Positions 2,279-30,389 of a stretch of 30,617 bases of DNA are shown here, piece after piece; position 1 is the stretch's first letter; each line of letters begins with the position of its first letter. The notes beneath the pieces were generated by a model that did no database searches, was not told the origin of the DNA, and saw only the letters and a list, made by a program, of their open reading frames with translations. Source of the DNA: Bacteroidales bacterium (GTDB taxonomy: Bacteria > Bacteroidota > Bacteroidia > Bacteroidales > JALTDM01); NCBI GenBank assembly GCA_027073875.1, contig JALTEO010000066.1, forward strand, positions 1 through 30,617, given 5' to 3'. The translations under genes were made by a program, and so were the position numbers.

Positions 2279-2381
2279 TGTCATTCCGAATTTATTTCGG
2301 GATCTGATTGTTTAATAGTTCGATAATAAGATGCTGAAACCCCGAAATCAAGTTTCGAGGACAAGCAAGTTCAGTATGACA
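2279..2381. repeat. REPIN-like inverted doublet of TGTC-tagged REP arms, with a nested 26-nt hairpin insert (2341-2366)
   Basis: Left arm TGTCATTCCGAATTTATTTCGGGATCT, 23-nt spacer, right arm AGATGCTGAAAC[insert]AAGTTCAGTATGACA. The spacer is 21/23 identical to 17933-17955. It lies between convergent genes. Confidence 0.88.
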
Positions 2382-7887: not shown

Positions 7888-9102
7888 TTAAGGTAATTCT
7901 GTCTCAATTTTGTTCAAATCTACAAAGAATTCAGGATATGATTTATTGACTGTCTCTTTGTTCTTGATAATTATTTCATTTTCTGAAACCAAATTTAATA
8001 CGCCTGCCATCATTGCAATGCGATGGTCGTGCTGTGAATCTATCGTACAACCTGAGATTTTCCCGCCTGTAATTTTCATCAAATCATCATTAATTTCTAC
8101 GGAAATACCTGCTTTTGACAATTCGGTTTTTAGCACTTCGCCACGATTGCTTTCCTTGTGTTTTAACCGCGAAACGCCTTTGATGGTTGTTGTTCCTTCG
8201 CAATTTGCGGCTAATGTTGCCAACGGCGGGAACAAGTCCGGACAATGTGTGGCATCAAATGTAAATGCTTGTAATTTTTTCCGCCTGACTTCAACAATAT
8301 TATCTTGTAACCGAATCTTCGCTCCTGCCATTTTCAGAGCATCAAGTATTTTTTTGTCTGCCTGCAACGAATTGCCGGAAAGATTTTTTACGGCTACTCC
8401 TCCGGTAAGTGCACCGGCAACCAGTAAAAAAGCAGCACCACTCCAATCGCCCTCAATCGTATATTCCTCAGGATGATATGTTTGATTACCTTTGATGAAA
8501 AATTGTTGATAATTAGTGTGTGATATTTCTACCCCGAAATGCCGGATAATGTTCATCGTCATATCAATGTATGGAATACTTTTCAGATTTCTAACCGTAA
8601 TTATCGAATTGCCGTCAACAAGGGGCAACGCTATTAGTAACCCTGTTAACAGTTGAGAACTTACCGAGCCGTCAATTGTGATTTCTCCTGCATTTAGTTT
8701 TTTGCTGATAGTTAGTGGCGGAAAACCGTTATCGGTAGTTACGCTAACACCTAATTGGACAAGAGATTCTCCCAGGAATCCTATGGGACGGGATTTTAGC
8801 GTTCCTTTGGCAGAAAGCTGTATTTTTTCTCCTGATAATGCAAAAATAGGTGCAAACATACGCAGAGCCAGCCCAGATTCTTCTGCTGAAAATAAACTTT
8901 CCGTAATTTTAATACCTTCGGATTGAATAATTAGTTCCCTATTTTCCTCAGTGATTTTGGCACCCAATCCTGCAATAAGGTTTTTGACAGCCATTGTGTC
9001 GTCGCACCACGAGACATTGTGTAGTACGGTTTTTCCTTTTGCCAGCAAAGCAATTGCCAATGCTCTTTGCAGATAACTCTTTGATGCGGGAGCTTGTATC
9101 AT
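7888..9102 (-). CDS. aroA: 3-phosphoshikimate 1-carboxyvinyltransferase (EPSP synthase)
   Basis: PASKSYLQRAL, ESGLALR, SSQLLTGLL, EGDWSGA, CPDLFP, RLKHKESNR, QHDHRIAM, KSYPEF. The N-terminus is unusually short. Confidence 0.95.
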   Translation of the reverse strand: MIQAPASKSYLQRALAIALLAKGKTVLHNVSWCDDTMAVKNLIAGLGAKITEENRELIIQSEGIKITESLFSAEESGLALRMFAPIFALSGEKIQLSAKGTLKSRPIGFLGESLVQLGVSVTTDNGFPPLTISKKLNAGEITIDGSVSSQLLTGLLIALPLVDGNSIITVRNLKSIPYIDMTMNIIRHFGVEISHTNYQQFFIKGNQTYHPEEYTIEGDWSGAAFLLVAGALTGGVAVKNLSGNSLQADKKILDALKMAGAKIRLQDNIVEVRRKKLQAFTFDATHCPDLFPPLATLAANCEGTTTIKGVSRLKHKESNRGEVLKTELSKAGISVEINDDLMKITGGKISGCTIDSQHDHRIAMMAGVLNLVSENEIIIKNKETVNKSYPEFFVDLNKIETELP

Positions 9103-9761
9103 TTTATTTTCGTTTCAGCATTTATAATGTTCACTAACTTTTCTATTGTTGCTTTGTCAAATTGTCCGGGAGCTGTTTCTTTTCCTTGTTCCTGCGAGAC
9201 ATAAGTAAATTCCGCACCGAGAAATAACGATGCCAGACGCGAAATTTTGCCTTTTTCGCCCATACAAAAAGCTATCAGGTTCGTGTTGTTACGATATAAC
9301 GAAAGCACGGTAGCTATGTCTTGTTCTGTGTCAGCCATTGTTACGACCTTAATTTTCCACGGGTTAAATTTTCTGCCGGCATCAATTATTTTTTGTAATT
9401 CGGATAATGCCGGCGTTGTTGTAAAATTGTGATAAGAGATAATGATCTGACAATTTCTTTTTTTGGCATATTTCAGCATATCTTTCTGAAAATCAGTATT
9501 GGAATCTATCTCAATGTCTATATAATCTGTGCCTAAATCAATTACTTTTTTTAATAAGTCTTTTTTTTCGGTATCGTTTTTTTCTTCGGAGCGATAGGTT
9601 GCAATAAATTTTGTTTTTAGTGCGAATAATTGCTTTAACTCGTGGTCGGAAAAATGAATTAAATCCAGACGCAACTCTGCCAATTTAGTATCTTTTGCTG
9701 CCTGATAACAAGCGGCAAAATTATTTTCTGAAAGCGTTACACAAAATTTATTTTCGGTCAT
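9099..9761 (-). CDS. aroD: Type I 3-dehydroquinate dehydratase
   Basis: ELRLD, YIDIE, ISYHNFTTTP (catalytic His), KIKVV (Schiff-base Lys), FCMGEKGKISRL, TAPGQ. Confidence 0.92.
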   Translation of the reverse strand: MTENKFCVTLSENNFAACYQAAKDTKLAELRLDLIHFSDHELKQLFALKTKFIATYRSEEKNDTEKKDLLKKVIDLGTDYIDIEIDSNTDFQKDMLKYAKKRNCQIIISYHNFTTTPALSELQKIIDAGRKFNPWKIKVVTMADTEQDIATVLSLYRNNTNLIAFCMGEKGKISRLASLFLGAEFTYVSQEQGKETAPGQFDKATIEKLVNIINAETKIK

Positions 9762-9765
9762 TTAT

Positions 9766-9934
9766 TTTTTATTTTGTTGAGATTCTTCATGAGTTCCTTC
9801 GCTTTGCTCAGGATGACATTTGTAAATGGTGTTTGTTGTCATACTGAGCTTGTCGAAGTATCTATTTCTCTTACATTTCATTTTACTCATTTGAGATTCT
9901 TCACTTCGTTCAGAATGACAAATCATTTGGGTTT
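9766..9934 (+). repeat. 169-bp direct repeat, copy A
   Basis: Matches 10412-10580 at an offset of 646 with 3 mismatches (9790, 9830, 9831). Confidence 0.93.
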
Positions 9935-10098
9935 ATACCGTATTTAATTACGAAGTTGTCATGCTGAGATTGTCGAAGTATCTATTTCTTTTATATTTCA
10001 TTTTACACATTATTGAGATTCTTCACTCCACTGCGTTCCGTTCAGAATGACATTTATGAATGGTATTTGTTGTCATACTGAGCGAATGCGAAGTATCT
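9780..10098. repeat. BIME-like array of six alternating inverted REP arms
   Basis: AGAT...TGACA arms at 9780-9818, 9894-9920 and 10016-10052 alternate with TGTCA...TATCT arms at 9837-9863, 9957-9983 and 10071-10098. Confidence 0.92.
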
Positions 10099-10464
10099 AT
10101 TCAATTTTATCATTTAAAAATTTCCATTCCGGATTAAATTCATTGATTAATTTATCTTTTTTATTTCTTTTCCAACCTTTTAATTGTTTTTCTCTATCAA
10201 TGGCGTGCTCAATAAATTGAAATCTCTCATAATAAACTAAATATATTGTATTGTATTTACCTGCAAATGTTTTCTTTTCCCCTTCTGAATCCTGTTTGTG
10301 TTCATATAGTCTTCTACTCAAATCATTTGTTACGCCAATGTATAGAACTTTCTTATATTTATTAGTAAGCATATATACGAAATAATTATGTGTTCCTATT
10401 GGTTTCATTTGTTTTTATTTTGTTGAGATTCTTCACGAGTTCCTTCGCTTTGCTCAGGATGACA
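10071..10464. mobile_element. Putative GIY-YIG/REP element: nuclease gene flanked by inverted TGTC-tagged arms
   Basis: The arrangement TGTCA...TATCT [gene] AGATT...TGACA has the same geometry as the empty doublets in this window. Mobility is inferred, not shown. Confidence 0.55.
10097..10408 (-). CDS. Small stand-alone GIY-YIG nuclease (YhbQ/UPF0213-like)
   Basis: YFVYMLTN...LYIGVTNDLSRRLYEH, AIDREKQLKGW (catalytic Glu), NPEW. 103 aa. GC is 80/312 (about 26%) by hand count. Confidence 0.92.
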   Translation of the reverse strand: MKPIGTHNYFVYMLTNKYKKVLYIGVTNDLSRRLYEHKQDSEGEKKTFAGKYNTIYLVYYERFQFIEHAIDREKQLKGWKRNKKDKLINEFNPEWKFLNDKIE

Positions 10465-10580
10465 TTTGTAAATGGCATTTGTTGTCATACTGAGCTTGTC
10501 GAAGTATCTATTTCTCTTACATTTCATTTTACTCATTTGAGATTCTTCACTTCGTTCAGAATGACAAATCATTTGGGTTT
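10412..10580 (+). repeat. 169-bp direct repeat, copy B
   Basis: Matches 9766-9934 with 3 mismatches. Confidence 0.93.
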
Positions 10581-10626
10581 TCGTATTAATTACGAGACTG
10601 TCATACTGAGCGAATGTAAAGCATCT
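10426..10626. repeat. BIME-like array of four alternating inverted REP arms
   Basis: Arms at 10426-10464, 10483-10509, 10540-10566 and 10599-10626. The last arm overlaps the aroB TAG. Confidence 0.92.
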
Positions 10627-11653
10627 ATTCATAATTCAAAATATCCGTTTTAAGTTCATCAATACTTATGCGTTCCACAATTGCCTCACCAATTTTTTTA
10701 ATCATTACAAAATCAATAAAATCGCTGTTTCGTTTTTTATCTTTCGTAATGGCATCAGCCAATTTTTTTCTATCAATATTTGTTGATGTCGGCAGTCCAA
10801 GATTATTTAACAGCATTTTAATTTTTTCGACATCTTGTTGTGAGATATATCCTTTTTTGGCAGATAAATGAGCAGAAAACATCATCCCTATACTGATTGC
10901 CTCACCGTGTGATAAATCGGAATGCTTTTCTATGGCGTGTCCCAGAGTATGACCAAAATTTAATTTTTTCCGTTCGCCCGATTCTTTTTCGTCGCGGTTA
11001 ACGATGGTTGCTTTTATTTGCACATTGCGATAAACCAAATCTGTAAAAAATGATTGGTTAAATGCTAAGATATTCTGTTGGTTATCAATAATTTCAGCAA
11101 ACAATTCTTCGTCGGCAATCAGGGCGTGTTTGATAATTTCACCAAATCCTGAACGGATTTCTTCCGGGGGCAAGGTTTGTAGCATTTCAGTATCGCAAAT
11201 AACAAATTGCGGCTGATTAAATGTCCCGATAATATTTTTATACGACAAGAAATTAACACCGTTTTTCCCGCCAACAGAAGCATCTACCTGCGAAAGCAAT
11301 GAGGTAGAAACAAATCCGAAATCAATGCCACGCATAAAAACCGATGCAACAAAACCGGTAATATCGCAAACCACACCACCGCCAATACCTACCAAAAACG
11401 AATGCCTGTCGGCTCCTAATTCTATTAATCTTGAAATGATAAACGACAATGTTTCAAGCGTTTTTGTTTTTTCTCCGGCTTCAACTACAATAACAGGAAA
11501 CTGACTAAACCGATTACCATACAGCCGGTTAAGGTTAGTATCTGTAATGACAATAATTTTTCTATCGGGCAAATATTTCTTTAAATTTCCAATTTGCTCA
11601 CCGATTAGCAACTGTGAATCTCCGAATTTCCCGTAGATAGATAATACTTTCAT
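10625..11653 (-). CDS. aroB: 3-dehydroquinate synthase
   Basis: GEKTKTL, GIGGGVVCDITGF, QVDASVGGKNG, EIIKH, LNFGHTLGHAIE, HGEAISIG, DKKR. Confidence 0.96.
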   Translation of the reverse strand: MKVLSIYGKFGDSQLLIGEQIGNLKKYLPDRKIIVITDTNLNRLYGNRFSQFPVIVVEAGEKTKTLETLSFIISRLIELGADRHSFLVGIGGGVVCDITGFVASVFMRGIDFGFVSTSLLSQVDASVGGKNGVNFLSYKNIIGTFNQPQFVICDTEMLQTLPPEEIRSGFGEIIKHALIADEELFAEIIDNQQNILAFNQSFFTDLVYRNVQIKATIVNRDEKESGERKKLNFGHTLGHAIEKHSDLSHGEAISIGMMFSAHLSAKKGYISQQDVEKIKMLLNNLGLPTSTNIDRKKLADAITKDKKRNSDFIDFVMIKKIGEAIVERISIDELKTDILNYE

Positions 11654-14277: not shown

Positions 14278-14299
14278 ATCTTAAACAATAGTCAATTAT

Positions 14300-14337
14300 A
14301 GATTCTTCACTGCCCCTTCGCTTTGCTCAGAATAACA
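14300..14337. repeat. Solo REP arm of the aro-array family
   Basis: AGATTCTTCACTGCCCCTTCGCTTTGCTCAGAATAACA closely resembles 9780-9818 and 10426-10464. Confidence 0.8.
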
Positions 14338-14346
14338 AAACCAAAA

Positions 14347-14362
14347 GTTTTGCAAATGTCTC
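14347..14362 (-). repeat. IS/MITE-end-like motif GAGACATTTGCAAAAC
   Basis: 15/16 identical to GAGACCTTTGCAAAAC at 17837-17852. A partial third copy (CAAAAGTTTTGCAA) is at 11707-11720. Confidence 0.55.
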
Positions 14363-17836: not shown

Positions 17837-17852
17837 GAGACCTTTGCAAAAC
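17837..17852 (+). repeat. IS/MITE-end-like motif GAGACCTTTGCAAAAC
   Basis: Inverted counterpart of 14347-14362. Confidence 0.55.
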
Positions 17853-17880
17853 CTAAAAGAAACTGTCATTCTATGTTTGC

Positions 17881-17982
17881 CGTCATTCCGAACTTGCCTG
17901 TCCTCGAAATACTTTTCGGGGGTTCGGAATCTGATTGTTTAATCGTTCGGTAATAAGATGCTGAAACAAGTTCAGCATGACG
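17881..17982. repeat. REPIN-like inverted doublet of CGTC-tagged arms, with a nested 25-nt hairpin insert (17896-17920)
   Basis: CGTCATTCCGAACTT[insert]GGTTCGGAATCT, 23-nt spacer, AGATGCTGAAACAAGTTCAGCATGACG. Homologous to 2279-2381. Confidence 0.88.
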
Positions 17983-30075: not shown

Positions 30076-30389
30076 TTTATTTTCAAACTATTAAGTGATT
30101 ATGTATGATAATTTGTGCAAAGTTTTTTGTCCACAGATGACACTAATTTTCACAGATTTAACTAATAATCTGAGCTCGAAATGATAAATGAATCACAGAA
30201 AACAAATAGGGATTACTAGTGGAATTATTCAGATTGATTCTTCCTCGTTCCTCGTCATCGCAATGTCGTTAATTTTATATCTTGCAGGTATTAATACAAA
30301 ATAAAGTAAAACTCGCGTCATTACGAAAGAGGCAAAGTAATCTCATATTTTTACCGTATACGATTTATTTTCAAACCATTAAGAGATTA
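30076..30389 (+). repeat. 26-bp direct repeats (30076-30101 / 30364-30389) enclosing degenerate REP arms
   Basis: TTTATTTTCAAAC(T/C)ATTAAG(T/A)GATTA, 24/26 identical. Inside are AGATTG...GCAATGTCG (30231-30268) and CGTCATTACG...TAATCT (30316-30343). Confidence 0.65.

Follow-up and report, generated by a model that had tools for sequence, protein, structure and literature searches.

A GIY-YIG gene within a hairpin array between aroB and aroD

We analyzed a stretch of 30,617 nucleotides (nt), referred to here as the window, that makes up contig C66 of a Bacteroidales genome (G000; 2.2-Mb assembly in 457 contigs, 84% complete, 36% GC). A SusD search, meant as a check on placement in Bacteroidota, gave no hit. 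On the minus strand of the window the genes run in the order aroB, a 103-amino-acid (aa) GIY-YIG open reading frame (ORF), aroD, and aroA, and the small gene is bordered on both sides by arrays of inverted hairpin repeats, which we call arms (Table 1). A first-pass annotation, made from the sequence letters, had described a low-GC GIY-YIG gene inside the aro genes; the ORF, its Pfam match, and a GC content of 25.6%, versus 34.7% for aroD, 36.1% for aroB, and 40.0% for aroA, all agree with that description. As argued below, the gene probably encodes a member of the Ssn family of nucleases, with the surrounding arms as its cognate recognition hairpins in a form divergent from the published NTS and SRM repeats.

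The ten arms, six to the left of the gene and four to the right, alternate strictly in orientation. Their heads lie, with the strand as sign, at -9818, +9837, -9920, +9957, -10052, and +10071, followed by the gene, and then at -10464, +10483, -10566, and +10599. The earlier coordinates for this array were correct, and the gene does sit where a doublet of arms would have its spacer: it is enclosed by the plus arm at 10071 and the minus arm at 10464, whose heads face outward, and this geometry is that of the empty doublets at 9837-9920, 9957-10052, and 10483-10566.

The two intergenic blocks also contain a 169-nt direct repeat that brackets the nuclease gene. When the blocks are aligned in gene orientation, the duplicated block begins at the stop codon of the preceding gene and reaches the ATG of the next one. 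The arm tail ATCTA contains the TAG stop for aroB (arm 10599-10630) and for the nuclease gene (arm 10071-10102) alike, and the leader AAAAA(T/C)AAATG is common to the starts of the nuclease gene and aroD. The right block is one doublet short relative to the left. The bracketing by two array copies makes the nuclease gene part of the aro transcription unit. Mosaic repeat arrays of the dRS3 type go by the name NIME. The window array resembles the dRS3 arrays of Neisseria and the BIMEs of enterobacteria (cited in PMC11893778) in its alternating inverted hairpins, its two recurring kinds of spacer, and its intergenic position, but differs from them in containing the nuclease gene itself, with the array duplicated on both sides.

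Table 1. Genes, hairpin arms, and repeats located in the window
Feature	Position	Strand	Basis or remark
aroB (3-dehydroquinate synthase)	10625-11653	-	Pfam PF01761 and PF24621; upstream of insert
Nuclease gene, predicted Ssn-type single-domain GIY-YIG, 103 aa	10097-10408	-	ORF; Pfam PF01541, E 2.8e-15
aroD (type I 3-dehydroquinase)	9099-9761	-	Pfam PF01487, E 1.4e-40; downstream of insert
aroA	7888-9102	-	Gene call and Pfam
Left hairpin array, six arms	9762-10096		From nuclease stop codon to aroD start codon
Left-array arms	9788-9818(-), 9837-9867(+), 9890-9920(-), 9957-9987(+), 10012-10052(-), 10071-10102(+)		
Right hairpin array, four arms	10409-10624		From aroB stop codon to nuclease start codon
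Right-array arms	10434-10464(-), 10483-10513(+), 10536-10566(-), 10599-10630(+)		
169-nt direct repeat, left copy	9766-9934	+	Repeat search; 98% identity to 10412-10580
169-nt direct repeat, right copy	10412-10580	+	Repeat search; brackets nuclease gene with left copy
Gene-less doublet of related C-headed arms	2279-2381		One arm interrupted by an extra small hairpin
Miniature inverted-repeat transposable element (MITE) left end GAGACCTTTGCAAAAC, truncated T-headed arm, then C-headed doublet	17837-17982		Insert in one arm of the doublet
MITE copy, right half: single arm and inverted end GTTTTGCAAATGTCTC	14296-14362	-	

The encoded protein and the Ssn family

The Ssn family of GIY-YIG nucleases specific for single-stranded DNA (ssDNA) was described by Chenal et al. 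(2025, Nat Commun 16:2388, PMC11893778) and corresponds to CDD cd10448 (GIY-YIG_unchar_3). Its members cleave ssDNA adjoining hairpins known as NTS or, more broadly, as the Ssn-related motif (SRM) (CGTCATTCCCGCG...GCGGGAATC), and their genes lie between those hairpins. The Neisseria repeat NTS was defined as CGTCATTCCCGCGMAVGCGGGAATCYRG, NTS copies are present on the flanks of ssnA, and an SRM was found close by in 71% of Ssn homologs (PMC11893778). SsnA itself is a small GIY-YIG protein that binds ssDNA and cleaves it beside the NTS, while double-stranded DNA and RNA are left uncut. The mutants Y6A, Y17A, and E64A were assayed next to the wild type, and the three residues are essential (PMC11893778).

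In the window protein, Pfam domain PF01541 covers residues 8 to 83 of 103 and no second Pfam domain was found; NCBIfam returned only a sub-threshold match to a group I intron endonuclease. With BLASTP, 88 of the 103 residues aligned at 44% identity (E 6e-24) with a 95-aa protein from a genome of the genus Neisseria (L159:1483-1767, minus strand), whose gene has canonical NTS copies on both sides. Its Y6, Y17, and E64 have the same numbering as the residues mutated in SsnA and are paired in the alignment with Y12, Y23, and E73 of the window protein. Across the genus Neisseria, homologs of the window protein occur in 15 of 46 genomes, with E values of 1e-15 to 1e-18. Among the marks of an Ssn protein are a single domain in no more than 150 aa, a BLAST hit to N. 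meningitidis SsnA that is stronger than E 1e-10 and spans 75% or more of the length, and retention of the catalytic residues. With the L159 protein standing for SsnA, the window protein shows all three, and by this sequence comparison it is placed in the family.

The resemblance to the published system extends beyond the protein. In both, the GIY-YIG protein has one domain, is about 100 aa long, and has identical catalytic residues (Tyr, Tyr, and Glu). Both also have a gene lying between inverted hairpins built as a (C/T)GTCAT head, a stem, a 3- to 5-nt loop, a second stem, and an ATC tail, and hundreds of gene-less intergenic copies of the hairpin, with the gene itself patchy among relatives. 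The window arms differ from NTS and SRM in having AT-rich stems with a conserved tandem G.A/A.G mismatch and heads that are mostly TGTC rather than CGTC. Further differences are that genome G000 has two paralogs, each with its own arm class, that many of its arms lie inside a MITE, and that SsnA has been assayed for activity whereas the window protein is known from its sequence.

The partnership of enzyme and hairpin is already in print, and the window is a further, somewhat divergent example of an Ssn/SRM system and not a new kind of system. The first-pass annotation had taken CGTC-headed repeats to lack an assigned enzyme. That view is out of date, since Ssn nucleases cut ssDNA beside such hairpins (PMC11893778), and with a partner enzyme identified and tested in 2025 the proposal that the small GIY-YIG protein serves these hairpins adds little in itself. 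Judging from its homologs in Neisseria and Wolbachia that have been assayed, the protein would most likely bind a (T/C)GTCAT-headed hairpin in ssDNA, after which the same strand would be cut at a fixed place adjoining the hairpin. Binding and cutting at arms would thus allow it to act on any ssDNA that carries an arm, including incoming transforming or conjugating DNA and intermediates of replication or repair. By analogy, then, we would expect the window protein to cut ssDNA, and to be specific for T-headed arms with G.A stems, and it may affect recombination or gene transfer.

Structure and genome-wide number of the arms

Each arm consists of a (T/C)GTC head, a 9-position stem starting with AT, a loop of 3 to 5 nt, a return stem ending with AT, and then a C. 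A count of arms over the whole genome, which the first-pass annotation had suggested as a check, gives 119 to 149 copies, above reversed and shuffled controls. At E<=0.1, a profile hidden Markov model made from the ten arms matched the 2.2-Mb assembly 119 times and the reversed genome 0 times; a structure scan, which required a hairpin behind a (C/T)GTCAT head, found 149, versus 22 to 33 in Markov shuffles; and a covariance model found at least 138.

Among 144 distinct arms, 85 have a TGTC head and 42 a CGTC head. Stem position 3 shows all four Watson-Crick pairs (TA in 90 arms and CG, AT, and GC in 14 each), and positions 4, 5, and 8 likewise swap pairs on both sides. Positions 6 and 7 hold a tandem G.A/A.G in about 90 arms and G-C/A-T in about 45. 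Head and stem are coupled across the genome: 88 arms combine a TGTC head with a G.A stem, and 39 combine a CGTC head with a Watson-Crick stem. In an alignment of 24 sequences from six genomes, double-sided changes occurred at 7 of the 9 stem pairs, the observed values were reached in 0 of 500 shuffles, and the pairing collapsed once the 3' partners were slid. The arms are hairpins, and their paired positions covary. Window arms align without gaps to the arms of relatives and to NTS copies (from Neisseria, Sphingopyxis, Thiohalobacter, an Anaerolineales metagenome-assembled genome [MAG], and a gammaproteobacterial MAG), with GTCA invariant.

Neighboring arms mostly form inverted doublets with their heads outward: 54 neighbor pairs are plus/minus, 11 are minus/plus, and in 5 both arms point the same way. 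The heads of a plus/minus pair are most often 79 nt apart, and a long spacer (393 nt) separates only one such pair in the genome, the pair around the nuclease gene.

Co-occurrence and co-variation of nuclease and arms

The homolog is patchily distributed in the same order, where it was found in 11 of 41 genomes, and it occurs together with the arms. Of the 10 genomes with five or more arms by the covariance model, 7 have it, versus 4 of 31 with fewer (Fisher p 0.0013); the figures are 3 of 6 versus 3 of 30 (p 0.045) after removal of the five genomes that had supplied sequences for the model. Both p values overstate the case because the genomes are related and so not independent. Five of the six closest homologs from the order (those in G028, G023, G040, G005, and G014) are flanked by similarly built arms with stems specific to each genome, and homologs at L101 and L102 lie 50 to 140 nt from canonical NTS copies.

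The arm class also follows the enzyme. When arm class is mapped onto a maximum-likelihood tree of 24 nucleases, 11 changes are required, compared with a mean of 16.1 when shuffled, and 0 of 200 shuffles gave a number as low. The nearest partner of the window protein on the tree is the nuclease of G028 (support 99/95), and both are accompanied by arms with TGTC heads and G.A stems. A second paralog in G000 (C261:1189-1476, L013), 49% identical to the first, groups instead with the nucleases of G005 and G014 (support 93/90). Arms of the C261 paralog, G005, and G014 have CTGAAC...TTCAG stems in common, and the arms flanking the C261 paralog are CGTC-headed with fully Watson-Crick stems. Genome G000 holds two enzyme-hairpin pairs, each paralog with its own arm class, which constitutes a ready-made natural test of Ssn specificity. 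That specificity is of interest in light of the proposal of these enzymes as ssDNA tools.

The Ssn homology, the flanks of the homologs, and the tracking of the nuclease tree by arm class together support the proposed partnership between the GIY-YIG protein and hairpins with a (T/C)GTC head. The first-pass annotation had named homolog flanks no richer in arms than the genome background and arm sequences that vary independently of the nuclease as outcomes that would speak against it; of these outcomes, which could be computed, neither was observed.

Several observations do weigh against assigning the gene and its arms to the Ssn system. The published degenerate SRM search motif, HGTCWYN(0-2)YYVSBRHN(0-5)WNVSBRGN(0-2)RNCYNB (PMC11893778), matches 0 of the window arms and gives only 4 hits, all unrelated, in the whole genome. 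An Ssn gene would be expected to have SRM hairpins within 500 bp on both sides; the ten flanking arms fit the SRM in build (head, stem, loop, stem, ATC) and not in letters, and the motif misses them because their stems are AT-rich and include the G.A pair. Since such variants escape the motif, repeat counts in low-GC genomes will be underestimates. The Neisseria protein at L159 was called SsnA-type from its Y6/Y17/E64 numbering and its NTS flanks, and not from an accession number. Lastly, arms are present without a detectable homolog in G004 (34 arms) and G008 (17 arms), and in N. lactamica and N. mucosa, which carry NTS copies, the GIY-YIG proteins found were a small UPF0213-like protein and UvrC, with no Ssn homolog. 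Arms therefore persist without the enzyme. A homolog was found at 2 of 120 random NTS-bearing loci, a count that is uninformative because the repeats far outnumber the genes.

The comparison also yielded some observations on the family at large. The exact Neisseria NTS motif is present in more than 120 loci from many phyla, among them Chloroflexota, Planctomycetota, and Nitrospirota. In the C-terminal helix, after the catalytic Glu, nucleases with tandem-G.A arms (G000, G028, G040; L002, L004) read R-x-K-K and the others read R-x-W-K. This difference, seen in three genomes, two of whose nucleases are closely related, may be a determinant of specificity. Genome G028 contains identical copies of the closest homolog (70% identity) at C30:39451-39759 and C30:40157-40465 (L002/L012), 706 nt apart in one array. 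All arms detected in that array are in one orientation, unlike the alternating arms of the window.

Gain or loss at the aroB-aroD junction

Among the relatives found, the closest is metagenome contig L179, with aroD and aroA 73% and 78% identical to those of the window. Its aroB-aroD spacer is about 50 nt long and has neither arms nor a nuclease gene, which makes the 860-nt array with its gene a lineage-specific feature of this junction. Immediately behind the stop codon of aroB, the L179 spacer (L179:295-352) reads TAAATCTACATTGGTGACAGG, which looks faintly like a collapsed arm (an ATCT tail ... TGACA head) and could be a remnant, a target, or a product of chance. The same-family relatives G001 to G005, whose aroD is 27 to 33% identical and has no adjacent aroB in the loci compared, are unfit for a synteny comparison because they are too distant.

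The 169-nt direct repeat and the duplicate genes in G028 point to recombination between arrays. We infer that such recombination accounts for the gain, loss, or amplification of cassettes of gene and arms, which fits the data better than precise transposition would.

A 132-nt element that carries arms

The commonest doublets in G000 have conserved flanks that are themselves inverted, so that the whole forms an element roughly 132 nt long, whose 16-nt ends (GAGACCTTTGCAAAAC) are inverted and enclose a core doublet of T-headed Ssn-type hairpins (for example, C55:1479-1611 and C237:183-314). There are 126 such ends in G000 versus 1 in the reversed control. Perfect 5-bp target duplications border 12 of 30 short copies, versus 0.24 expected from mispaired flanks, and among the same 30 copies there was no signal at 3, 4, or 6 bp. 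In a comparison across genomes, 82 ends were found in G000 and 0 to 2 in each of 40 relatives, showing the element to be lineage-specific. Terminal inverted repeats, a target duplication, and many short non-coding copies are the hallmarks of a MITE, and the 132-nt element has all three. Of 199 arms, 75 (about 38%) lie just inside a MITE end, and nearly none of these are C-headed; the C-headed class and the arrays adjoining both nuclease genes lie outside the MITE. No MITE inverted ends were found around either nuclease gene.

In this context, the arms may have multiplied mainly as cargo of a cut-and-paste MITE whose transposase is missing from the fragmented assembly, with the Ssn protein only recognizing the hairpins. 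The excess of inverted ends, the 5-bp duplications, the share of arms just inside the ends, and the restriction of the ends to G000 make this a serious contender, although we hold it somewhat short of probable. The C-headed arms and the two nuclease-adjoining arrays outside the MITE count against it, as does the result for long pairs of MITE ends, which enclosed housekeeping genes only and no transposase gene in this fragmented assembly. With an assembly that breaks at repeats and reaches 84% completeness, the missing transposase means little. Spread as MITE cargo is compatible with the Ssn assignment of the gene itself, and Ssn hairpins riding in a MITE with target-site duplications bear on how such repeats multiply.

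The first-pass annotation had gone further and proposed that the nuclease spreads or maintains the arms, so that the gene and the gene-less doublets would be an autonomous/non-autonomous pair in the manner of RAYTs (transposases associated with repetitive extragenic palindromic [REP] sequences) and REPINs, with hairpin cleavage driving the spread of arms and cassette. The analogy has substance. In the window, as in RAYT/REPIN systems, an enzyme gene is flanked by inverted hairpin repeats that are also present genome-wide as intergenic inverted doublets, and the discussion of the Ssn paper, in which Ssn is likened to IS200/IS605 transposases and to REP/BIME repeats, raises the same RAYT/REP analogy (PMC11893778). 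The gene is in the doublet-spacer position, roughly 140 to 200 arms in 2.2 Mb are mostly uniform 80-nt inverted doublets, the array and gene are missing at the same site in the closest relative found, nuclease and arms co-vary, and G028 has tandem units of gene plus arm. We nonetheless consider such a pair unlikely. To our knowledge, GIY-YIG enzymes hydrolyze DNA with no covalent intermediate and have by themselves no strand-transfer step like that of HUH enzymes. The cassette has no terminal inverted repeats or target duplication, and its 169-nt direct repeat points to recombination. The copies that do carry a transposition signature are those of the MITE, whose ends do not surround either nuclease gene, and arms occur in genomes free of the homolog. 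Spreading of the arms by the nuclease is thus not supported.

A narrower version would have the 132-nt element moved with the help of the Ssn nuclease and not by a conventional transposase. If so, nuclease and element would form a true autonomous/non-autonomous pair run by a GIY-YIG enzyme. We think this improbable. The MITE signature is not obviously explained by a single-strand nuclease acting alone.

It is very improbable that the arms are ordinary REPs served by a RAYT-type Y1 (HUH) transposase, with the GIY-YIG gene there by chance. The hairpins do form REPIN-like inverted doublets, and G000 has one Y1_Tnp match (C97:10-354, E 1.5e-24). This is the only PF01797 match of the genome, however, and the 3.2-kb contig C97 that holds it has no arm, so that the only Y1 gene of G000 is not near any arm. 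The window enzyme is a predicted GIY-YIG hydrolase and not an HUH Y1 protein, the arm head is (T/C)GTCAT and not GTAG, and GIY-YIG homologs are flanked by arms in many unrelated genomes. Hardly credible is the idea that the gene has no connection with the repeats and encodes either a UPF0213/YhbQ-type housekeeping protein or a free-standing homing endonuclease. Sequence searches of solved structures did return UPF0213 proteins and no others, with weak matches (1ywl, E 7e-4; 1zg2, E 7e-3), but the Ssn-type similarity is far stronger (E 6e-24), the UPF0213-like GIY-YIG protein of N. lactamica is unmatched by the window protein at E<=0.1, there is no DNA-binding domain beyond the catalytic domain, the gene lies in neither an intron nor an intein, and its distribution among relatives is patchy (11 of 41 genomes).

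Other repeats and arm sites

Two loci outside the window showed repeats of other kinds. At C97:1-700 (L162), the Y1 gene at the contig end is followed by two copies of a unit of about 170 nt that contains the small hairpins CTCC-TAC-GGAG and TCCC-TAC-GGGA, in which the opposite strand reads GTAG; this gene and its repeats may be a separate REP-like system. In G034, a complete genome of the same order, eight small GIY-YIG genes (frames of 84 to 124 aa) are arranged head to tail in tandem with a 343-nt period at C1:3904008-3906618 (array loci L168, L170, L173, L175, L177, and L178). The window protein had no match to these genes at E<=1e-5.

Further arms in the window itself had been named in the first-pass annotation. 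The covariance model recovered those at 2279-2309, 14296-14337, and 17952-17982, whereas 30316-30347 gave a weak match (E 0.088). The C-headed doublets at 2279-2381 and 17881-17982 each have one arm split at the hairpin apex, and in both the insert at the apex is about 25 nt long and itself forms a small hairpin.

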